64,000 nt of DNA from Candidatus Poribacteria bacterium (lineage in GTDB: Bacteria > Poribacteria > WGA-4E > PCPOR2b), in assembly GCA_965218095.1 (NCBI GenBank), contig OZ244587.1, forward strand, positions 3,424,001-3,488,000. The letters run 5' to 3'. Below, one piece after another: positions 73 through 12,806 of the stretch. The translations under genes were made by a program, and so were the position numbers. The notes under the pieces were generated by a model. That model was not told the DNA's origin and did not search any database. It saw only the letters and a program-made list of their open reading frames with translations. Numbering within the stretch: position 1 is the first letter of the stretch; the number at the start of each line of letters is the position of its first letter.

Positions 73-1401
73 GTTTCAACCTTTGCCCCGATGAAAAGGG
101 GACTGAAAGTGACGAGATTCAGATCCCTCTGTAGTAGCACCTGAGTTTCAACCTTTGCCCCGATGAAAAGGGGACTGAAAGTATTCGTCAGTTACTGTAC
201 AGGTTATCGTAACTGTTGTGTTTCAACCTTTGCCCCGATGAAAAGGGGACTGAAAGTTATCTATATCCGCATCTGTCTCGTCATCAATATCGCGTTTCAA
301 CCTTTGCCCCGATGAAAAGGGGACTGAAAGGCAAATTGGGCGATGCTCGGTCTATTTCTGCGAGAGTTTCAACCTTTGCCCCGATGAAAAGGGGACTGAA
401 AGACTCCAATGTGATAGCGTGGACGGCACTGGCTATTCACGTTTCAACCTTTGCCCCGATGAAAAGGGGACTGAAAGTGCCGGTCCAGTGCGTTGTTGCA
501 GGTCCTGTTCTGCGTTTCAACCTTTGCCCCGATGAAAAGGGGACTGAAAGTCAAGTTGATAACCTTTTCCCTGACTGCTTGTAGCGATGTTTCAACCTTT
601 GCCCCGATGAAAAGGGGACTGAAAGTGCACTCAAAGAATACATCGTGTTCTCAGATGTCGGTGTGTTTCAACCTTTGCCCCGATGAAAAGGGGACTGAAA
701 GTGCTCGGCGACTTCGCAAATAGCAACGCCGAACAACCGTTTCAACCTTTGCCCCGATGAAAAGGGGACTGAAAGGGTAGTCTCAGTTTCACTTAATGTC
801 GCTCCTTTGGGTTTCAACCTTTGCCCCGATGAAAAGGGGACTGAAAGAACGTGATTCAGGTGGCTCTCTTAGAGTTGTTTCCGCCGTTTCAACCTTTGCC
901 CCGATGAAAAGGGGACTGAAAGCAAGTATCCTATACTTGGTGCTGCAGGACTTGGAGCAGTTTCAACCTTTGCCCCGATGAAAAGGGGACTGAAAGTCTG
1001 AATTGACTGCACGGACCTGGAAATCATATTCGGGTTTCAACCTTTGCCCCGATGAAAAGGGGACTGAAAGGTCATTAAAAATATTACGGAATAGCGCACT
1101 CTCAAGTTTCAACCTTTGCCCCGATGAAAAGGGGACTGAAAGACCGATCCTACATGGCCCGATCTCCCGTCTGTCCCTGAGTTTCAACCTTTGCCCCGAT
1201 GAAAAGGGGACTGAAAGCACTAATTCACCTCAACAGCGTGGTCGTTATATCGGTGGTTTCAACCTTTGCCCCGATGAAAAGGGGACTGAAAGGATAAGCA
1301 CCCGTCACTAATATTGGGGCAGGGGAGGTTTCAACCTTTGCCCCGATGAAAAGGGGACTGAAAGGAAGCCCCTGCGCCACTTCCGACCGCCGTTTTGACG
1401 A

Positions 1402-4400
1402 GTTTCAACCTTTGCCCCGATGAAAAGGGGACTGAAAGGCTTCAGGACATCATCAATAATCTGTTTCCGGGGTCGTTTCAACCTTTGCCCCGATGAAAAG
1501 GGGACTGAAAGCGCGATAGTGTGAAAGAAATGTTTGAGAATGTGGGTTTGTTTCAACCTTTGCCCCGATGAAAAGGGGACTGAAAGTTTCAGGAAGTTGA
1601 CACGGTGGCAGCAGTTCTGGGTTTCAACCTTTGCCCCGATGAAAAGGGGACTGAAAGGAATCAGTGATGGACGCGGTGGTGTCATTTCTGTATCGTTTCA
1701 ACCTTTGCCCCGATGAAAAGGGGACTGAAAGAGCCCGTATCTTGGACGAGCAGGTGTTCGGTATCAGTTTCAACCTTTGCCCCGATGAAAAGGGGACTGA
1801 AAGGACCGACTTTGTGCATCTCCCGATAGGCGGAGAGTCAAGTTTCAACCTTTGCCCCGATGAAAAGGGGACTGAAAGTTCACATACGCGCCGAGAGGGA
1901 TTCGCTTCTCGACTGCGTTTCAACCTTTGCCCCGATGAAAAGGGGACTGAAAGGATACCAACATTCGATCACTTCATAGGTGTCTTGGCGGGTTTCAACC
2001 TTTGCCCCGATGAAAAGGGGACTGAAAGACATCGTCAAGCCATTCTATATACTTCTCATCAGAATGTTTCAACCTTTGCCCCGATGAAAAGGGGACTGAA
2101 AGACTCGCATCTATCGGGAGAACGGGCAGACGCTTTAGTTTCAACCTTTGCCCCGATGAAAAGGGGACTGAAAGATAAAGTCTTGCACGAGCACGGAGGC
2201 GCGACCAAGTTTCAACCTTTGCCCCGATGAAAAGGGGACTGAAAGTGACCACTTTCGTCGCGGCGGCAGGAAAGCCGTCTGGGTTTCAACCTTTGCCCCG
2301 ATGAAAAGGGGACTGAAAGATATCAGGATTGAGAAGCCGATACCATGCATGACCCTGTTTCAACCTTTGCCCCGATGAAAAGGGGACTGAAAGAGTGTTC
2401 GGACGGTCGATGCCTCGACCATTTTTGTTAGTTTCAACCTTTGCCCCGATGAAAAGGGGACTGAAAGGGTCCCCATCATGCAACTCATTGTGATGGATCT
2501 GAAGTGTTTCAACCTTTGCCCCGATGAAAAGGGGACTGAAAGCGCTTAGGGCGATACTTGTCGGTGCGTACCCGAAATAAGTTTCAACCTTTGCCCCGAT
2601 GAAAAGGGGACTGAAAGGCGACATCCAGTTCTGGGGTAACGATACCCGCGGCTGTTTCAACCTTTGCCCCGATGAAAAGGGGACTGAAAGTGCAGAAGAT
2701 TTGGAAGGGGAGTTTAGGATTATATTGTTTCAACCTTTGCCCCGATGAAAAGGGGACTGAAAGTGAAGCTGAAACTTGGCAAATGCGAAATGTTTTGATG
2801 TTTCAACCTTTGCCCCGATGAAAAGGGGACTGAAAGCTCTCAAGTATCAACGCACTATTCGACCGTGCCCCGTTTCAACCTTTGCCCCGATGAAAAGGGG
2901 ACTGAAAGTTACCCAGTGGCTTGGTAATGTCTCAAGGCCTGTTGCGTTTCAACCTTTGCCCCGATGAAAAGGGGACTGAAAGTTTGCTTTTAACATGTTT
3001 AGGAATGCCGCTGCGTGGTGTTTCAACCTTTGCCCCGATGAAAAGGGGACTGAAAGGACACAAAGAAGAATATGTGAAAGTGTATCCTTCGGGTAAGTTT
3101 CAACCTTTGCCCCGATGAAAAGGGGACTGAAAGCAGAGCCGGTAGCCGTTCAGCCGAATAATCGTAGTTTCAACCTTTGCCCCGATGAAAAGGGGACTGA
3201 AAGGCTTCAGGACATCATCAATAATCTGTTTCCGGGGTCGTTTCAACCTTTGCCCCGATGAAAAGGGGACTGAAAGCGCGATAGTGTGAAAGAAATGTTT
3301 GAGAATGTGGGTTTGTTTCAACCTTTGCCCCGATGAAAAGGGGACTGAAAGTTTCAGGAAGTTGACACGGTGGCAGCAGTTCTGGGTTTCAACCTTTGCC
3401 CCGATGAAAAGGGGACTGAAAGGAATCAGTGATGGACGCGGTGGTGTCATTTCTGTATCGTTTCAACCTTTGCCCCGATGAAAAGGGGACTGAAAGAGCC
3501 CGTATCTTGGACGAGCAGGTGTTCGGTATCAGTTTCAACCTTTGCCCCGATGAAAAGGGGACTGAAAGGACCGACTTTGTGCATCTCCCGATAGGCGGAG
3601 AGTCAAGTTTCAACCTTTGCCCCGATGAAAAGGGGACTGAAAGTTCACATACGCGCCGAGAGGGATTCGCTTCTCGACTGCGTTTCAACCTTTGCCCCGA
3701 TGAAAAGGGGACTGAAAGGATACCAACATTCGATCACTTCATAGGTGTCTTGGCGGGTTTCAACCTTTGCCCCGATGAAAAGGGGACTGAAAGACATCGT
3801 CAAGCCATTCTATATACTTCTCATCAGAATGTTTCAACCTTTGCCCCGATGAAAAGGGGACTGAAAGACTCGCATCTATCGGGAGAACGGGCAGACGCTT
3901 TAGTTTCAACCTTTGCCCCGATGAAAAGGGGACTGAAAGATAAAGTCTTGCACGAGCACGGAGGCGCGACCAAGTTTCAACCTTTGCCCCGATGAAAAGG
4001 GGACTGAAAGTGACCACTTTCGTCGCGGCGGCAGGAAAGCCGTCTGGGTTTCAACCTTTGCCCCGATGAAAAGGGGACTGAAAGATATCAGGATTGAGAA
4101 GCCGATACCATGCATGACCCTGTTTCAACCTTTGCCCCGATGAAAAGGGGACTGAAAGAGTGTTCGGACGGTCGATGCCTCGACCATTTTTGTTAGTTTC
4201 AACCTTTGCCCCGATGAAAAGGGGACTGAAAGGGTCCCCATCATGCAACTCATTGTGATGGATCTGAAGTGTTTCAACCTTTGCCCCGATGAAAAGGGGA
4301 CTGAAAGCGCTTAGGGCGATACTTGTCGGTGCGTACCCGAAATAAGTTTCAACCTTTGCCCCGATGAAAAGGGGACTGAAAGGCGACATCCAGTTCTGGG

Positions 4401-4931
4401 GTAACGATACCCGCGGCTGTTTCAACCTTTGCCCCGATGAAAAGGGGACTGAAAGTGCAGAAGATTTGGAAGGGGAGTTTAGGATTATATTGTTTCAACC
4501 TTTGCCCCGATGAAAAGGGGACTGAAAGTGAAGCTGAAACTTGGCAAATGCGAAATGTTTTGATGTTTCAACCTTTGCCCCGATGAAAAGGGGACTGAAA
4601 GCTCTCAAGTATCAACGCACTATTCGACCGTGCCCCGTTTCAACCTTTGCCCCGATGAAAAGGGGACTGAAAGTTACCCAGTGGCTTGGTAATGTCTCAA
4701 GGCCTGTTGCGTTTCAACCTTTGCCCCGATGAAAAGGGGACTGAAAGTTTGCTTTTAACATGTTTAGGAATGCCGCTGCGTGGTGTTTCAACCTTTGCCC
4801 CGATGAAAAGGGGACTGAAAGGACACAAAGAAGAATATGTGAAAGTGTATCCTTCGGGTAAGTTTCAACCTTTGCCCCGATGAAAAGGGGACTGAAAGCA
4901 GAGCCGGTAGCCGTTCAGCCGAATAATCGTA
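1402..4931 (+). repeat. Tandem duplication of a 1765-bp block (24 repeat-spacer units): 1402-3166 = 3167-4931
   Basis: Same spacer series at constant 1765 offset (1439 vs 3204; 3134 vs 4899). Confidence 0.97.
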
Positions 4932-7900
4932 GTTTCAACCTTTGCCCCGATGAAAAGGGGACTGAAAGGCAGAGAGCTTCCGACCTTTGCCACGATTCCA
5001 GGTAGGTTTCAACCTTTGCCCCGATGAAAAGGGGACTGAAAGCTAGGCGAATGCCGGTCTTTTCGGCTATCAGGTTGATGTTTCAACCTTTGCCCCGATG
5101 AAAAGGGGACTGAAAGATATTGACACCACCCCCCCGATTATCCCAATAATCCCAGTTTCAACCTTTGCCCCGATGAAAAGGGGACTGAAAGTTCACCACA
5201 ACAGCGTGGTCGGTACAATTCTTCTAATGGTTTCAACCTTTGCCCCGATGAAAAGGGGACTGAAAGATGACCTCCATGGTTTGGATTAGCTCCGGCAACA
5301 GCGGTTTCAACCTTTGCCCCGATGAAAAGGGGACTGAAAGAGCCTTGCTTTTCAGGCTGCCGTCGCCATCTGGCCTGTGTTTCAACCTTTGCCCCGATGA
5401 AAAGGGGACTGAAAGTCGTCAAATTGCCAACCACATCGGTCTGCTTCGTAGCCGTTTCAACCTTTGCCCCGATGAAAAGGGGACTGAAAGAACCAGTCGT
5501 AGGATTCCCCCAGAACTTGAGATTGCCAGTTTCAACCTTTGCCCCGATGAAAAGGGGACTGAAAGACTCACGGGACTTCTGGAGATGTTTTCTGGTGTAT
5601 GCTGTTTCAACCTTTGCCCCGATGAAAAGGGGACTGAAAGACTCACGGGACTTCTGGAGATGTTTTCTGGTGTATGCTGTTTCAACCTTTGCCCCGATGA
5701 AAAGGGGACTGAAAGTGGCAATTACAATGAGATTTATGGTAATCGCTTTGGTATGTTTCAACCTTTGCCCCGATGAAAAGGGGACTGAAAGATTGATGTT
5801 GCCTAATAATCTCCCTCCCTGGTCCGTAGTTTCAACCTTTGCCCCGATGAAAAGGGGACTGAAAGTCAAAGTAAGAGCCAAGGTCCTGGACGCTTTGAGC
5901 AAGTTTCAACCTTTGCCCCGATGAAAAGGGGACTGAAAGTAGCGTCATGGAGAATTGAGAACATCCGCCGCTCCGAGTTTCAACCTTTGCCCCGATGAAA
6001 AGGGGACTGAAAGAGACGGAACGGGCATCCTGCCGGAAGGACTTCAAGCCGTTTCAACCTTTGCCCCGATGAAAAGGGGACTGAAAGGGTGACGGCGTGG
6101 AAGTAAACGCTCATATCCGGTGGTAGTTTCAACCTTTGCCCCGATGAAAAGGGGACTGAAAGCAGAAAGAATTAGTTGTACAGCATCAATAATCATAGTG
6201 GTTTCAACCTTTGCCCCGATGAAAAGGGGACTGAAAGGCTGTTGTGGCTTGGACTGTGCTATCTACTGCAGTGTTTCAACCTTTGCCCCGATGAAAAGGG
6301 GACTGAAAGCAGCCGACCAAATACCGCTTCCTTTGGTAATTAGACGCGTTTCAACCTTTGCCCCGATGAAAAGGGGACTGAAATCGAAGAACAAGGCACA
6401 CTTTGCGAAATGGTATACAGAGTTTCAACCTTTGCCCCGATGAAAAGGGGACTGAAAGCCCGACGACCGTAACCCTGTCCTTATCCCACCCTTCCGTTTC
6501 AACCTTTGCCCCGATGAAAAGGGGACTGAAATCGAAGAACAAGGCACACTTTGCGAAATGGTATACAGAGTTTCAACCTTTGCCCCGACGAAAAGGGGAC
6601 TGAAATACGAGTAGTCCGTTGGCCTTCGTCGATTTCGCTGCGTGGTTTCAACCTTTGCCCCGACGAAAAGGGGACTGAAATACTCGTCGATCAGCGCCCG
6701 GCACGTCGCGGTCCCGGCGTTTCAACCTTTGCCCCGACGAAAAGGGGACTGAAATTGTTGTAATGCCATGTCTCATTGAGAAATGGTAAACCTGTTTCAA
6801 CCTTTGCCCCGACGAAAAGGGGACTGAAAGCATCATCAATCGGATCAATACTAAACAGCGTTCCGTTGTTTCAACCCTTGCCCCGACGAAAAGGGGACTG
6901 AAAGTAATTCTTTGATTGGAGATTCATAGATGGCTAGCGTTGTTTCAACCCTTGCCCCGACGAAAAGGGGACTGAAAGCCACAATAAGTGGGTGGCTCGC
7001 CTCTGTGGCATGATAGTTTCAACCCTTGCCCCGATGAAAAGGGGACTGAAAGTGGTCGGGAAAGTGCTGCAGCGTACTGAGTCCGACATGGTTTCAACCC
7101 TTGCCCCGATGAAAAGGGGACTGAAATGCTCACCTGCGGCTTTGGTCTTCATCACCTGCTCACGTTTCAACCTTTGCCCCGACGAAAAGGGGACTGAAAT
7201 AGACATCTATTTGGCGACTATCATTCTCTTCAATCCAAGTTTCAACCTTTGCCCCGACGAAAAGGGGACTGAAATACTTCTTGAATTGCGTGATCGGGCT
7301 TTTGAGGCTTCAGGTTTCAACCTTTGCCCCGACGAAAAGGGGACTGAAATAAAAGGAGTCGAACATGACCCACTATCAATTAACTCAGTTTCAACCTTTG
7401 CCCCGACGAAAAGGGGACTGAAATTCACGCCAATACTCCCCAACTGGTGGGCAATCACCTGGTTTCAACCTTTGCCCCGACGAAAAGGGGACTGAAATAC
7501 TTTCCCACTTTCGCTTCCCTCCTTCTCTCCTTTAGTTTCAACCTTTGCCCCGACGAAAAGGGGACTGAAATAAGACGAACAAATGCCTACCGCTCGGCTC
7601 ACGTGCGGTTTCAACCTTTGCCCCGACGAAAAGGGGACTGAAATTGAACTCATGGTATTTTGACCGATTCTTTCCTCCGCTGTTTCAACCTTTGCCCCGA
7701 CGAAAAGGGGACTGAAATCTCCGAATGCAATGCTGTCACCCATGCAGCCAAGCAGTTTCAACCTTTGCCCCGACGAAAAGGGGACTGAAATCATGTAGAA
7801 GCCAAGGGGATAATCTATTGCTACAGGTTTCAACCTTTGCCCCGACGAAAAGGGGACTGAAATTGCACTCCAAAAAGGAATGCCATCTCGGACATCGCTG

Positions 7901-8536
7901 TTTCAACCTTTGCCCCGACGAAAAGGGGACTGAAATCTCCGAATGCAATGCTGTCACCCATGCAGCCAAGCAGTTTCAACCTTTGCCCCGACGAAAAGGG
8001 GACTGAAATGCGTAATATTGTCATGACCAGATAGGCATTCGTCTAGTTTCAACCTTTGCCCCGACGAAAAGGGGACTGAAATTTTCCCGTCAAGTTCCGA
8101 CCAATGCCGATGGTCACTGTTTCAACCTTTGCCCCGACGAAAAGGGGACTGAAATGGGAAATGGGGGAACGTGGCGTGGAGTGCGGTTATAATGCACTCT
8201 GCATGTTTCAACCTTTGCCCCGACGAAAAGGGGACTGAAAGCCTCACACTTTCTCACCTGCGCCTTCCTCCTATAGTGGTTTCAACCTTTGCCCCGACGA
8301 AAAGGGGACTGAAAGTATCTAACATGCTTGACTTGCAACCTAGTAGCAGAATTGTTTCAACCCTTGCCCCGATGAAAAGGGGACTGAAAGACGATTTTAG
8401 CGTTCCCTACCGGGACACAACAAATGGTTTCAACCCTTGCCCCGATGAAAAGGGGACTGAAAGCATCTTTGATTTGTTCATTATGTTCATAAGATTTGGG
8501 TTTCAACCCTTGCCCCGACGAAAAGGGGACTGAAAG

Positions 8537-8749
8537 TTGCAACGACGAGGCAAAAGAGCGAATAGAGGGGCTAAAAAGGGCAAAATTTCATGACGCACGC
8601 GGGGCAGCCCGGCGTAGTGCTAGCAAGGCGTTAGAAGCGCTTGAGATCATATTTGAAGCCTTGCCCCTCACTCTCGCCAAGGCCACACCCAAAACGCTTG
8701 AGGATTTCAAGAAGATCCCAAGCCGAGACATCCGCCGTCTCCTCGACAG
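8537..8749 (+). other. 213-bp oversize spacer carrying a stop-free, helical-looking protein-coding fragment with no start or RBS
   Basis: Between repeats 8500-8536 and 8750-8786; frame reads CNDEAKERIEGLKRAKFHDARGAARRSASKALEALEIIFEALPLTLAK...RRLLDR. Confidence 0.6.
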
Positions 8750-8792
8750 GTTTCAATTCGTGCCCCGACGAAAAGGGGACTGAAAGTAGTTT

Positions 8793-8819
8793 TGCTATAC
8801 TATATGATCGAAAGGAGGT
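8793..8819 (+). promoter_or_regulatory. Extended -10 promoter (TGcTATACT) and Shine-Dalgarno (AAGGAGGT) at the start of the 1.9-kb spacer
   Basis: TG at 8793-94, TATACT 8796-8801, AAGGAGGT 8812-8819, ATG 8827. Confidence 0.65.
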
Positions 8820-8826
8820 TTTCATC

Positions 8827-10686
8827 ATGTCAAGTTTCCGTACCATTTCACGGCTACTCATTTGTCTGTTTCTCCTGTGCAGCTCTGCCATCGCACAAAT
8901 CGTCGAAATTCCCGACCCTAACCTCGCGGCGGCGATACGGGATAACCTCGGCTTAAACCCAAACGAACCAATACAGCAAGAAGATTTGTTGCGCCTCACC
9001 AGTCTTGAAGCAATAGACAGAGGCATCAAAGACCTCACAGGTCTCGAGTATATGACAAATCTTAGAGGATTTAATCTCTACAAAAACGAAATCGTTGACA
9101 TAAGCCCACTGGCGAGTCTAACCAAACTCACATGGTTTAACCTCTTGAGCAACCAGATAGTTGATCTAACTCCCCTCCGTAAACTCGTAAGACTAAGAAC
9201 CATCATACTTAGCAACAACCGAATTAAAGATGTTCATCCACTCGGATCTCTCACAAATCTAGTTTATCTAAATCTACGCCACAATCAGATTACAGATTTC
9301 ACACCACTTGCCAATCTAGTAAACCTTGAAAGACTTAGAATCGAGTACAATCCCAGCACCGATATCAGTTTTGCCAATGGTCTAAACCTAATCGAGTTTA
9401 TTTATCACGAAATCTGTGACCTGCCGAGACTTCCAATTCAAGAACGCATAGATAATCGAAGTTTCCCATCGATCTTTCAAGCATGGAATGGACTGATAGA
9501 TGATTCATTAACAGAAGACGATCGAACAGCACTCCATGATATCTATTGGGGACCATATTTTAGGCTCGATTGGCGAGAAGGCTTCCAGCTAGTCGGCGAC
9601 TTAAAAGCCTCCCGGGCGAGCCGTGACCTATTGCTCACCAAAAATCCCAACATGCTGATCGTTACTCATATTTTCATGCGAGGCGGCTCCATAACGAATT
9701 TCTTCCCCGAAAACTTTCCCTACTGGATTAGAGATGAAAACGGCAACCCTATCGTCGGAGGACCGAATTCATTTCTCCTGGATTTCACACACCCCGGCAT
9801 GCAAGATATAATTGTTCAACAAGCCATCGCACTCTCAAGATGTGGGTTGTTTGATGGTATCCTCATCGACTGGTGGCGTGAGGATGTAAACGTTTTACGC
9901 GATCATCGAAGCTTTGAGGCAGAGCAACAAGCGCGAGATATAATTATTCAAGCCGTCCGCGCTGCGGTTGGCCCTGATTTTTTAATCATAGTCAACAGCA
10001 ATCGGAGTAAAATTCCACGCACGGGGCCTGGCAATATCAACGGCATCTTCATGGAAACCCATCGCGACCACGACGACGGCTACACACATGAGTCCCTTAT
10101 GCGGATTGAAAGCACCCTGCTCTGGGCAGAAGAAAACCTCAGGGCGCCACAGCTTAACTGTTTAGAGAACACAAGCGTTAAATATGGCGCACCAGACTCC
10201 CCCGAGAACCAACAATGGATGCGAGTCTTCACCACCCTGACCCTCACCCACTCCGATGGGTATGTGCTCTCAGTGTTTGGCGACTTGCACGCGCATATTT
10301 GGTATGACTTCTGGGGCGCCGACCTCGGACGCCCCATTGGACCAAAGGGTCAACCCTACCAAAACCACGAGGGAGTCTTTATCCGAGAGTTCACCAACGG
10401 CTGGGCGGTCTACAACCGCAGCAGCAAACCCCAAGAAATCACCCTGCCGAGCCCCGCCACAGGTGTCGAAAGCCAACACACCGGCGCCACCCACCAGCTT
10501 CCTGACCTCGACGGCGAAATCTACCTCAAATCCCCCGTATCGCCATACGACCTGAACAAAGATGGCATGGTGAATATCTTCGATTTAATCATCGTCGCCA
10601 ATCGGTTCGGCGCCCCCACTGGCGATGTCAACGGAGATGGGACCACCGACATCTTCGACCTCGTTCTCGTTAGCCAGAATTTCTAA
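8827..10686 (+). CDS. Secreted internalin-like LRR protein with putative glycoside-hydrolase-like TIM-barrel and C-terminal dockerin/EF-hand domain (619 aa), inside the CRISPR array
   Basis: Signal peptide MSSFRTISRLLICLFLLCSSAIA; LRR cap EIPDPNLAAAIR; six 22-aa LRRs; FDGILIDWW motif; DLNKDGMVNIFDL...DVNGDGTTDIFDL dockerin repeats; strong RBS. Confidence 0.9.
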   Translation: MSSFRTISRLLICLFLLCSSAIAQIVEIPDPNLAAAIRDNLGLNPNEPIQQEDLLRLTSLEAIDRGIKDLTGLEYMTNLRGFNLYKNEIVDISPLASLTKLTWFNLLSNQIVDLTPLRKLVRLRTIILSNNRIKDVHPLGSLTNLVYLNLRHNQITDFTPLANLVNLERLRIEYNPSTDISFANGLNLIEFIYHEICDLPRLPIQERIDNRSFPSIFQAWNGLIDDSLTEDDRTALHDIYWGPYFRLDWREGFQLVGDLKASRASRDLLLTKNPNMLIVTHIFMRGGSITNFFPENFPYWIRDENGNPIVGGPNSFLLDFTHPGMQDIIVQQAIALSRCGLFDGILIDWWREDVNVLRDHRSFEAEQQARDIIIQAVRAAVGPDFLIIVNSNRSKIPRTGPGNINGIFMETHRDHDDGYTHESLMRIESTLLWAEENLRAPQLNCLENTSVKYGAPDSPENQQWMRVFTTLTLTHSDGYVLSVFGDLHAHIWYDFWGADLGRPIGPKGQPYQNHEGVFIREFTNGWAVYNRSSKPQEITLPSPATGVESQHTGATHQLPDLDGEIYLKSPVSPYDLNKDGMVNIFDLIIVANRFGAPTGDVNGDGTTDIFDLVLVSQNF

Positions 10687-10748
10687 ATAGGGTTTGTTTC
10701 AATCCTTGCCCCGACGAAAAGGGGACTGAAAGCAACCAAGGAGGTTTT

Positions 10749-10934
10749 ATGACATTACGAATTTGGGAAGCAATTATTGGCGTGCTTTTCTACATCGCCG
10801 CTGGCATTATTGTCGGGGGCATAATCCTATTGATTTTCTATGTTAGACATGAATTAGGACTTTCTGATTCATTCTGGCCCGCCGAACTCGAAGATGTATT
10901 CGAGAAAATTCGAGATAAGAGGAAGGAGAATTAA
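10749..10934 (+). CDS. Small single-pass membrane protein (61 aa), inside the CRISPR array
   Basis: AAGGAGGT at 10738-45; hydrophobic N-terminal helix, charged tail. Confidence 0.7.
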   Translation: MTLRIWEAIIGVLFYIAAGIIVGGIILLIFYVRHELGLSDSFWPAELEDVFEKIRDKRKEN

Positions 10935-11081
10935 GATGAACAAGACTTTTATCGACGACCATTTAGTTTCAACCTTTGCCCCGACGAAAAGGGGACTGAA
11001 AGCCGGCGACGCCTACACCGTTGGATTCGGATTCGCGCCGTTTCAATCCTTGCCCCGATGAAAAGGGGACTGAAAGAGCAC

Positions 11082-11120
11082 AAAACTAGGCGACCGCCCC
11101 GAAGGACAATCGCCTAGTTT
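11082..11120 (-). terminator. Terminator-like hairpin forming a spacer
   Basis: Minus strand TAGGCGATTGTCC-TTCG-GGGCGGTCGCCTA followed by GTTTT. Confidence 0.6.
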
Positions 11121-11232
11121 CAATCCTTATCCCGACGAAAAGGGGACTGAAAGAGCACTTTCCCACTTTCACCCCCTCTCACCTGCTTCTTGTTTCAATC
11201 CTTGCCCCGACGAAAAGGAGACTGAAAGAGCA

Positions 11233-11268
11233 CAAAAAAAGGTGACCGCCCCGAAGGACAATCGCCTA
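11233..11268 (-). terminator. Intrinsic terminator forming the last spacer
   Basis: Minus strand AGGCGATTGTCC-TTCG-GGGCGGTCACC followed by a T7 run. Confidence 0.7.
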
Positions 11269-11353
11269 GTTTCAATCCGTTCAAAGCATTACGTCGTCAA
11301 ATGGAGCCCTGTCGCGTTGGGCAAAGGAAGGCACAGCATGAAGGTGTATTTGC

Positions 11354-11418
11354 TAACCCCCCTGACAAGGGGGGACGGGAAAACGCCTCCCTTGTCAGAC
11401 CCCCTTCTCAGGGGGTTA
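11354..11418. repeat. REP-like nested palindrome
   Basis: TAACCCCC...GGGGGTTA enclosing CTGACAAGGG...CCCTTGTCAG. Confidence 0.55.
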
Positions 11419-11540
11419 CGACATCCCGATGAAGTTGGGATTTTTCAAAGCTGTCCCTTTGCCGGGCTTTGTCTTCCATGAGAACGTGCAGGAAGCATCA
11501 ACGGCGGACAACTTCGAGGTGGTGGTCAAGAACGAATAAG

Positions 11541-12806
11541 TTAGTCTCTCACCCTGATTATATCCGCACCAATCCCCGCAAGTTTCTTTTCGATCAATTC
11601 ATATCCGCGATCGATATGGTAGACGCGGGAAACCACCGTTTCTCCTTCAGCCGCTATGCCAGCAAGAACCAAAACCGCCCCGGCACGCAGATCCGATGCC
11701 ATAACAGGGGCGCCGCTCAGTTTAGGCGCACCGCGTACCACCGCCCGGTTTCCTTCGACGCGAATATCCGCACCCATGCGATTGAGTTCGCTGGCATGCA
11801 TGAAACGATCTGAGTAGATGCCTTCTGCGATAACGCTGACACCTGGCATAATACTGAGAAGTCCCATCATCTGCGCTTGCATATCGGTTGGAAAGCCCGG
11901 GTATATATCGGTGATCACATTGACAGCTTGGAGGCACCGTGGCGTCGTCACGCGAACCCCATTATCCGCCCAATCCAGTTGAACGCCTGCCTTAAGTAGT
12001 TTTTCGCACACGGCGCCGAGGTGCTCCGGTAGCGCATGCTTGACAAAAACATTCCCCTTCGTGATGGCGCCCGCAACCATGAATGTTCCCGCCTCGATAC
12101 GGTCTGGAATGACAGTATGTTCCGTGCCGCGAAGTCGCTTGACGCCATGTATCGTCAAGGTGGAAGTCCCGGCCCTTTTGACCTTTGCTCCCATTGCATT
12201 GAGGAAATTCGCTAGGTCAGCGACCTCCGGCTCACAGGCAGCGCCACGGATAATCGTCGTGCCTTCCGCCAGCGTTGCCGCCATCATGACGTTTGCCGTT
12301 GCACCGACGCTTGAACCGTGTGGTCCTCTCAGATACATCTCCGCACCGACCAGCCGATCCGCTCGCGCAACGATATAGCCGCCGTCAATCTCAATCTCTG
12401 CACCGAGTTGCTCCAACCCTTTCAGGTGCAGATCTATCGGACGTGGACCGATTGCACAACCGCCAGGGAAAGAGACCTTTGCCATGCCTAAACGCGCAGC
12501 GAGCGGCCCCAGCACATAGATCGACGCCCGCATTTTCCGGACGAGATCGTAAGGGGCTTCATAAGCAATCCGGTTTCCCGGTTCGATATAGAGGCTTGAA
12601 TTTTTGAACTTTGCCGTTGCCCCTAGCACCTCAAGCACCGCGCACAGGGTATCAATATCCCTCAGATTTGGAACATTGTGGATGACACTTGCGCTGTCTG
12701 CCAAAATCGCGGCGGCGACAGCGATGGGAAGCGTCGCATTTTTAGAACCGCTGACTGAAATTGTGCCTTCGAGTCGTTTGCCGCCGTTGATGATTAACTT
12801 ATCCAT
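11541..12806 (-). CDS. murA: UDP-N-acetylglucosamine 1-carboxyvinyltransferase
   Basis: GSKNA, PGGCAIGPRPIDLH, PGFPTDMQ, SDLRAG motifs. Confidence 0.97.
   Translation of the reverse strand: MDKLIINGGKRLEGTISVSGSKNATLPIAVAAAILADSASVIHNVPNLRDIDTLCAVLEVLGATAKFKNSSLYIEPGNRIAYEAPYDLVRKMRASIYVLGPLAARLGMAKVSFPGGCAIGPRPIDLHLKGLEQLGAEIEIDGGYIVARADRLVGAEMYLRGPHGSSVGATANVMMAATLAEGTTIIRGAACEPEVADLANFLNAMGAKVKRAGTSTLTIHGVKRLRGTEHTVIPDRIEAGTFMVAGAITKGNVFVKHALPEHLGAVCEKLLKAGVQLDWADNGVRVTTPRCLQAVNVITDIYPGFPTDMQAQMMGLLSIMPGVSVIAEGIYSDRFMHASELNRMGADIRVEGNRAVVRGAPKLSGAPVMASDLRAGAVLVLAGIAAEGETVVSRVYHIDRGYELIEKKLAGIGADIIRVRD

Follow-up and report, generated by a model that had tools for sequence, protein, structure and literature searches.

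Gene-sized, spacer-like inserts at the trailer end of a type I-D CRISPR array in Candidatus Poribacteria and its relatives, best read as rare long integrations that persist

We analysed a 64,000-nucleotide stretch of a Candidatus Poribacteria genome (contig OZ244587.1, positions 3,424,001 to 3,488,000 of the forward strand; hereafter the window, in whose own coordinates positions are given unless a genome or locus is named). The window begins 72 nucleotides (nt) ahead of a long CRISPR array. In a fuzzy scan for GTTTCAACCTTTGCCCCGATGAAAAGGGGACTGAAAG, with at most 8 mismatches allowed, 121 full-length repeats of 37 nt appear on the plus strand between 73 and 11228 and none on the minus strand of the window. 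The gaps between them measure 33-40 nt in 116 of 120 cases and 49 nt once (8156-8204, a moderately oversized spacer), and the three remaining gaps are of another order altogether: 213 nt (8537-8749), 1909 nt (8787-10695) and 233 nt (10733-10965), edged by the repeats at 8500, 8750, 10696 and 10966. These three inserts, which all read in the direction of the array and lie four repeats from its old trailer end, are the subject of this study. The initial annotation of this DNA had described four full repeats around inserts of just these sizes and orientation, with normal spacers resuming afterwards, and the scan returns the same borders; the trailer end (11003-11278) consists of three normal units, with decaying repeats at 11040, 11117 and 11192, and a 10-nt partial terminal repeat at 11269 that closes the array. 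The features of the locus are the following.

Upstream of the window start, plus strand: leader and cas operon (cas genes by profile search); the trailer is the right end
73 to 11228, plus strand: type I-D CRISPR array, 121 repeats of 37 nt (fuzzy repeat scan)
8500 to 8536, plus strand: repeat 5' of insert 1, two mismatches to the consensus (repeat scan, fold)
8537 to 8749, plus strand: insert 1 (213 bp), an in-frame internal gene fragment (similarity to protein P0002)
8750 to 8786, plus strand: repeat between inserts 1 and 2, hairpin and ACTGAAAG end intact (repeat scan, fold)
8787 to 10695, plus strand: insert 2 (1909 bp), a 40-nt upstream region with a ribosome-binding site (RBS), one complete gene and 9 nt
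8827 to 10686, plus strand: intact 619-codon gene with signal peptide, LRR_4, GHL15 glycosyl-hydrolase-like and dockerin domains (Pfam)
10696 to 10732, plus strand: repeat between inserts 2 and 3, an old AATCC variant (repeat scan, fold)
10733 to 10965, plus strand: insert 3 (233 bp; repeat scan)
10749 to 10934, plus strand: putative 61-codon open reading frame (ORF) with RBS, N-terminal half hydrophobic, an orphan
10937 to 10965, plus strand: RBS, ATG and first codons of a second ORF, severed by the repeat (direct reading)
10966 to 11002, plus strand: repeat 3' of insert 3, after which normal spacers resume (repeat scan)

The first 85 repeats are all identical while variants and decay grow toward 11228, which places the leader at the left end. 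The genome is one 6.35-Mb contig with no N, and the window array is the only one in it with a GTTTCAACCTTTGCCCCGATGAAAAGGGGACTGAAAG-type repeat; Rfam gives weak CRISPR-DR32 and CRISPR-DR10 matches on its plus strand. Directly upstream, on the same strand, lie cas6, a WYL-WCX regulator, cas10d, an unassigned gene of 212 amino acids (aa), csc2, csc1, cas3', cas1, a gene for a tyrosine transposase of the kind associated with repetitive extragenic palindromes (REP), cas2 and cas4. Type I-D signature proteins score above cut-off (Csc2 97.3 bits against 38, Csc1 92.1 against 41.4, type I-D Cas3' 165.5 against 69.1); the match to Cas10d is weak (E 1.1e-8; 33.7 bits, where the cut-off is 60). The adaptation module and cas6 were also found (Cas1 226.8 bits, Cas4 123.4 bits, Cas2 PF09827 E 9.5e-16, Cas6 PF10040 E 2.5e-17), so that by genes and by repeats the array and its locus are type I-D. 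Cas1 is a stand-alone protein of 362 aa with cas3', the REP-associated tyrosine transposase, cas2 and cas4 as neighbours, and no reverse transcriptase is fused to it or beside it in the cas locus. Typing of this locus, which had been proposed with a view to Cas6 and to a reverse transcriptase-Cas1, therefore delivers the first and not the second.

Repeat-mediated gain, loss and duplication of units is active in this array. A block of 1765 bp with 24 spacers is tandemly duplicated, the spacers of both copies being identical (1401-4930), smaller duplications occur at 75, 148, 218 and 152 nt (spacers 5566/5641, 6385/6533, 7719/7937 and 11077/11229), and the last of these concerns the last spacer itself (11077-11116, with a 92.5% copy at 11229-11268).

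Insert 1 is open from end to end in one frame, whose product shares 70% identity with P0002, a protein of 222 aa, over residues ~67-138 of the latter. Since this match reaches to within 7 nt of both repeat borders, the insert is a fragment from inside a gene, severed on either side. Neither P0002 nor insert 1 belongs to a Pfam or PHROG family; the insert-1 frame is absent from 28 family genomes and from viral contigs, and the latter also hold no homolog of P0002. Among 172 other genomes of the class P0002 finds one weak match (E 2.1e-4, 26% identity), a rarity that hints at a mobile-element origin for the source gene of insert 1. A further protein, P0001, is an ORF of another assembly (on a 23.7-kb contig) that leads from the 8391 spacer across a repeat and on into insert 1; its array is without unit 8464-8536 and has one extra unit farther up, and neither peptide is found in the window genome. 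Insert 1 is thus present in a second strain whose array has changed by ordinary gain and loss of units. Within insert 1, a 16-nt stretch at 8652-8667 shares 14 of its 16 positions with the 5' part of the repeat; the stretch consists of codons conserved with P0002 (IFEALPL), and the source gene may carry the stretch too.

In insert 2, the ATG at 8827 stands 40 nt past the repeat and the TAA (10684-10686) 9 nt ahead of the next one, the same spacing that the initial annotation had given. Pfam recognises LRR_4 (E 4.6e-22), GHL15 (E 4.2e-10) and dockerin (E 1.8e-6). Several paralogs of this leucine-rich repeat (LRR) gene occur in the window genome and in relatives. The closest (genome 2780397-2782263) is 80% identical in nucleotides from the RBS to just ahead of the stop, with unrelated flanks, and is a pseudogene (genome 2780410-2782271) with one in-frame stop and one frameshift. 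Between the array copy and this paralog dN/dS is 0.29 for codons 1-419 (dS 0.41) and 0.20 for codons 422-619 (dS 1.10), which indicates that the two diverged mostly under protein-level constraint. For its first 27 nt the insert has no counterpart in the paralog, and these nucleotides could represent an old spacer. The protein has no match in metagenome contigs. Runs X8 and X4 contain another copy, its compared parts being 91-95% identical; the match ends at 8824 on one side and right after 10686 on the other, and one record of this copy continues for 6 kb. With such different flanks, this copy shows that a close relative holds the gene outside any array. A promoter-like pair, CTGAAA-17-TATGAT, lies at 8780-8808, its first hexamer being the repeat end; this is a consensus match only, as are all six promoter-like sites, to be set against 3.5 +/- 1.8 in shuffles. 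The array-borne gene is intact, with past purifying selection behind it; it is probably a passenger and would be expressed from the promoter-like site at the border or by read-through. As a side observation, an rve transposase gene lies at genome 2787985, 6 kb from the pseudogene paralog.

Insert 3 carries the motif AAGGAGG 5 nt past the repeat that ends at 10732, ahead of the 61-codon ORF. This ORF has no homolog in the 28 family genomes or in viral contigs, matches only itself in the protein database and has no PHROG or Pfam family. The initial annotation had seen here an RBS at this distance and a complete small gene. Both can be found, and the same insert holds a second ORF that is severed after ten codons, with an ORF at 10894-11061 extending into the repeat. 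Two of the three inserts thus ignore gene boundaries, insert 1 being internal to a gene and insert 3 severing one: the borders of the inserts cut genes arbitrarily.

CRISPR arrays are difficult to assemble, and an artefact that fused pieces of an array with unrelated genes has to be considered, all the more as one run bearing the junctions (X1) may be the source sample. Logan contigs cross the left junctions with 0 differences in X1 (8508-8979), X2 (8508-8790 and 8761-9056) and X4 (8510-8830), and the right junctions, again with 0 differences, in X1 (10392-10995), X2 (10393-10723) and X4 (10707-10994). Contigs of two studies (P1 for X1 and X2, P2 for X4) therefore span repeat-insert-repeat-gene and gene-repeat-insert-repeat, the ORF from another assembly runs from spacer through repeat into insert 1, and the genome is a single contig without N. 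An artefact is in our judgement next to negligible: of the mis-assembly that the initial annotation had named as a refuting outcome these contigs show no sign, and the inserts are real and stable across strains. Contig joints that skip 2.3-2.6 kb (for example 8468 to 11040) were set aside as cross-alignment and not deletion variants, their sides being shorter than 30 nt and inside repeats.

Gene-sized gaps of this kind recur in relatives. The collection holds no other genome of the window's genus; its 29 genomes of the family include 14 with the repeat pattern, and 14 loci from nine of these 14 were examined, arrays being counted if they had at least 10 repeats and the window genome (G000) being included. 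By this count, 6 of 12 arrays have at least one gap above 200 bp between repeats.

G000 (window genome): gaps of 213, 1909 and 233 bp
G019: gap of 2222 bp with two tandem lipoprotein-like genes that have AAGGAG sites
G018: gap of 730 bp with a lipoprotein gene, which has a 78% homolog at an ordinary locus in G007
G021: gap of 732 bp with a double Cro/C1 helix-turn-helix (HTH) protein
G002: gap of 432 bp
G015: gaps of 1007 and 718 bp with a terminase-small-subunit-like protein (PHROG 2538, E 5.6e-15)

Large gaps are absent from the other six (G007 with 60 repeats, G014, and two arrays each in G002 and G017). Genes between repeats or half-repeats are seen at two relic loci as well, namely G004 (1195 bp, an endonuclease/exonuclease/phosphatase protein) and G017 (2269 bp). 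The origins of the inserts are mixed: phage terminase-like in G015, Cro/C1 HTH in G021, and native secreted or lipoprotein genes in G000 and G018; the G015 terminase-like protein has no match in viral contigs. There is no homology among inserts of different arrays apart from a family-wide REP-like hairpin, and no window insert has a second copy as a repeat-bounded unit in the genome, in the 28 family genomes or in the inserts of relatives. The search for other repeat-bounded genes that the initial annotation had called for thus succeeded in the arrays of relatives, with contents that are not homologous. In every array with inserts, 1-4 repeats follow downstream of them. Apart from these gaps, the G014 array holds an 81-nt spacer twice, 100% identical (L024 9678-9758 and 10463-10543). 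We found no published description of gene-sized, repeat-bounded inserts recurring at trailers, within a coverage of subscription journals that was incomplete; annotation pipelines would list such loci as neighbouring arrays, and the pattern may often have been seen and not discussed.

These genes need not have been inserted at all if they were ancestral chromosomal DNA lying between tandem arrays, some of which collapsed to single repeats. Collapse of an array to a single repeat is a discussed outcome (PMC8047081), a relic single unit persists at 3614381 in the window genome, and the 432-bp gap of G002 is followed by two repeats of a different variant, which may be a separate array. Seven arrays of genus g4 speak to this directly. 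They have a syntenic trailer flank in common, and so lie at one orthologous locus, and they share neither trailer spacers nor inserts, four of the seven having inserts, which makes the insertions independent. Genes are moreover severed exactly at repeat borders, no leader-like sequence precedes the distal repeats, and related populations carry the 91-95% LRR copy with different flanks. We also dropped the idea that the distal repeats have their own leader: the window inserts do not match the true leader and cas region (L001). An ancestral LRR gene surrounded later by stray repeats, with no other repeat-bounded genes to be found, was the case that the initial annotation had set against capture; the gene does exist outside arrays in related populations, other repeat-bounded genes do occur in relatives, and capture is not refuted. 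Ancestral DNA is thus quite an unlikely account, and a further point against it comes from G019.

The insert of G019 opens 2-6 nt past the repeat with a 95.8% copy of 448 bp from the 3' part of the genome's own WYL-WCX gene, the source lying in the cas locus ~10 kb away in the same orientation; such a duplicate of a gene ~10 kb away is hard to reconcile with ancestral DNA. An internal 'repeat' divides this insert. Its 5' half is unrelated to the CRISPR repeat and equals, at 10 of 15 positions, a solitary repeat-like element of G021, the corresponding element of G019 itself being more diverged. This 'repeat' came in with the fragment, so that one insert of 2222 bp is counted, and a count of two inserts (513 and 1672 bp) separated by what is an imported repeat-like element was dropped. 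The solitary elements themselves (minus strand, L030 ~2830 in G021 and L028 ~3535 in G019) keep the 3' 22 nt of the CRISPR repeat with an unrelated 5' half and are located downstream of the WYL gene; the G019 element is also directly upstream of cas6. They are candidates for regulatory elements akin to CRISPR RNA (crRNA); none was found in the cas locus of the window genome.

The initial annotation had seen no transposase, terminal inverted repeat or target duplication at the inserts, and wider searches agree with it. There are no terminal inverted repeats and no target duplications at the inserts beyond the CRISPR repeats themselves. Between genome positions 3,405,001 and 3,488,000 lie none of the 8 matches to the PF00589 tyrosine recombinase in the genome (the nearest, at 3,073,338, is ~350 kb off) and none of the 32 to the rve transposase (none within ~180 kb). 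Pfam finds no tns genes in the insert ORFs of the window and relatives, and casposase, PolB and terminal inverted repeats are absent from the window inserts, which encode only the LRR-GHL15-dockerin gene and small ORFs. Could the inserts be what is left of CRISPR-targeting mobile DNA, a phage or plasmid with the repeat as attachment site or with a solitary repeat, or a transposon, after internal deletions that left passenger fragments only? There are precedents in Tn7-like transposons, whose insertions into CRISPR arrays often lie toward the degenerate end, and in phage PhiAP1.1, for which CRISPR repeats are the site of integration (PMC11837452). As here, large DNA then sits inside arrays and is best tolerated toward the degenerate end, phage-type genes occur in the G015 and G021 inserts, and a repeat-like element travelled with the G019 DNA. 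Unlike those elements, the inserts have no tnsABCD, integrase, element ends or 5-bp duplication and consist of 0.2-2 kb of ordinary genes and fragments; the DNA of the LRR gene and of the WYL fragment is of host type, and insert 1, which touches full repeats on both sides, would require two deletions ending exactly there. Set against the lack of any tns, integrase, transposase, inverted repeat or target duplication in or near the inserts, decay of mobile DNA seems unlikely to us, if worth keeping in view.

The proposal that the initial annotation had put forward was of another kind: an integron-like platform in which genes are captured, co-transcribed with the array, released by Cas6 as mRNAs and shuffled through the repeats. 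Several features are in keeping with it. Cas6 is encoded in the locus. The CCCC/GGGG hairpin, lost in the repeats at 11117 and 11192, is the minimum-energy or centroid fold in all four insert-flanking repeats, and scan and folding together bear out the earlier observation that these repeats keep both the hairpin and the ACTGAAAG end; in the repeat at 8750 all 5 mismatches fall within the 5' third. In the 12 repeats next to inserts, mismatches tend to spare the hairpin and handle (38 among the first 13 nt against 19 among the remaining 24), as opposed to 20 and 29 in 10 terminal repeats, a 5' bias that could reflect retention of the Cas6 hairpin and handle. The best ORF runs in the array direction in 10 of 11 inserts (7 of 8 when the count is restricted to ORFs backed by a family or a homolog; only the G017 relic departs from this), and no terminator-like site was found on the plus strand in a scan of 8300-11700. 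The LRR gene, finally, is intact at a dN/dS of 0.2-0.3 while its paralog is dead. As in integrons, co-oriented genes lie between short structured repeats downstream of a promoter-bearing platform. Unlike them, the array has no IntI-type recombinase within ~350 kb, its repeats are CRISPR repeats and not attC sites, two of the three window inserts are truncated genes, as is the G019 fragment, and no cassette is common to the arrays compared or found twice in the genomes searched. All inserts, furthermore, sit at the oldest and least transcribed end of the array. The mismatch pattern may reflect old repeat variants only, given that repeat positions 8-11 vary among working repeats too, and the mismatch events are not independent. 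The co-orientation might, at a guess, come from selection against antisense transcription into an active array. With insert 1 an internal fragment, insert 3 severing an ORF, no insert seen twice and all at the old trailer end instead of a site of active capture, cassette use is not sustained, and we regard the platform as very improbable.

The best reading is that the three inserts are oversized spacer-like insertions in an otherwise normal, active-looking type I-D array. Their exact borders, arbitrary cuts and mixed phage, self and native origins are the properties of spacers in everything except length, which favours the integration of untrimmed DNA. In canonical acquisition by Cas1-Cas2(-Cas4), too, arbitrary pieces of foreign or self DNA come to lie exactly between two full repeats, and cas1, cas2 and cas4 are present here; the differences are the size of the inserts (213-1909 nt as against 33-40 nt for 116 of 120 gaps), their non-identical flanking repeats and the lack of a motif of the protospacer-adjacent motif (PAM) type at the one known source, in G019. 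A closer precedent for the length is the casposase, a Cas1 homolog that joins kilobase DNA at a defined target, which is duplicated (Hickman et al., 2020, PMC6977970); the view given in that paper is that Cas2 favours a single short DNA. The likeness lies in kilobase DNA with a duplicated target, the CRISPR repeat taking the role of target-site duplication, and the difference in that the window inserts lack casposase, PolB and terminal inverted repeats and that the target is an array repeat. Adaptation linked to reverse transcription, one form of what the initial annotation had proposed, does not fit a plain type I-D locus whose stand-alone 362-aa Cas1 has no reverse transcriptase fused or next to it. 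Relaxed adaptation or repeat-repeat recombination, the wider proposal, is still the best class of explanation. Capture guided by self-targeting spacers was also considered and dropped, the 118 spacers compared with the genome outside the array having matches of 16-20 nt only; no partial self-match was found among neighbouring spacers. Stand-alone repeat-like elements, which have been described as crRNA-like regulators, solitary repeat units and RNA anti-CRISPRs (PMC8616872), are comparable in that single repeats adjoin protein genes, as does the solitary repeat-like element 3' of the WYL gene in G021 and G019; they differ in that the single repeats of the window are full-length, in register and in line with the 121-repeat array.

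We hypothesize that, by the most likely route, an untrimmed long fragment would be joined at a repeat by the Cas1-Cas2(-Cas4) integrase, casposon-like, and the repeat would be duplicated; the alternative route would be recombination in which repeats or spacers act as guides. Slippage is expected to fall with the distance between repeats. An insert that sets its flanking 37-nt repeats 0.2-2 kb apart would rarely be removed by the slippage that removes 73-nt units. With units added solely at the leader, and normal units downstream of and between inserts being lost, old inserts would settle near the trailer, stacked, with single diverged repeats between them. Trailer position and separation by single repeats would then follow from array dynamics and call for no function, the trailer being described as the stable array end (PMC8047081), and the genes inside would be passengers, a by-product and not a cassette system. 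That the inserts are rare integrations of long DNA at repeat borders, resistant to slippage and piling up at the trailer, has in our estimate about an even chance of being correct.

Several points weigh against this account or limit it. Nothing observed here singles out Cas1-Cas2 as the agent of the putative integration. The repeats that flank each insert are not identical to each other, so that age or recombination is needed to explain them. Pure neutrality predicts neither the 38:19 versus 20:29 split of mismatches nor the co-orientation of 10 of 11 inserts. The PAM of type I-D systems is a GTN-type motif, and directly upstream of the source boundary in G019, the sole insert with a known source, there is none. 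Some repeat borders can be imported with the DNA, as the internal 'repeat' of G019 was. And the LRR gene is intact where its paralog is broken, which means that the gene may be of importance to the cell.

Some further observations concern the surroundings of the array. The last spacer and its copy hold a strong hairpin that on the minus strand, where a T run accompanies it, reads as a terminator and faces the end of a murA-like gene (11541-12806), and this oldest 'spacer' may serve that gene as its terminator. Beyond it, at 11343-11391 in the trailer flank, the model of the c-di-GMP-I-GGC riboswitch matches weakly (E 0.017; 23.6 bits, where the gathering score is 59), most likely by chance. 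The REP-associated tyrosine transposase gene between cas1 and cas2 (L001:17222-17785, genome 3422222-3422785; NF047646, below cut-off at E 2.1e-19) has on either side a copy of a REP-like hairpin (L001 17176-17208 and 17812-17848), of which genus-g4 genomes hold tens to hundreds. A resemblance of the repeat core to a REP family beside the LRR paralog was dropped as an idea, there being just 10 loose matches genome-wide. Solitary repeats occur outside the array at genome positions 3272368 (minus strand), 2803247 (plus strand) and 3614381 (minus strand); two of them are members of a second family, whose repeats have a CGC/GCG stem and make up an array of 10 repeats in G017, and the third, at 3614381, is a one-unit relic of the window's own repeat family, with a broken rve transposase gene 1.7 kb away.

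The Cas1-Cas2 ruler is believed to keep spacer length within tight bounds, and Cas1-Cas2 itself is thought to descend from a transposase that moved kilobases of DNA. If the integrase made the inserts, they would be in-vivo evidence that this old transposase-like ability survives, and they would hint at a natural set of enzymes with which long DNA can be written at a defined site. A more far-reaching version is a long shot: type I-D adaptation in this family would occasionally act as a casposon-like integrase and place 0.2-2 kb of DNA, at times entire genes, between duplicated repeats, and some of the genes so captured, the LRR-GHL15-dockerin gene being an example, would be kept and expressed from the transcript of the array, with their mRNA 5' ends set by the Cas6 hairpin and handle retained upstream; a CRISPR array would then be capturing genes in nature. 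Even if the inserts arose by recombination, the data suggest a rule for arrays, namely that long inserts resist deletion and settle at the trailer, and this rule would account for many of the 'split' or neighbouring arrays in annotations. An array can also shelter the sole intact copy of an ordinary gene. Kilobase inserts lying exactly between repeats recur independently in half of the arrays examined in this one bacterial family, and such giant spacer-like inserts form a recurrent, lineage-wide pattern, best read as rare long integrations that persist.

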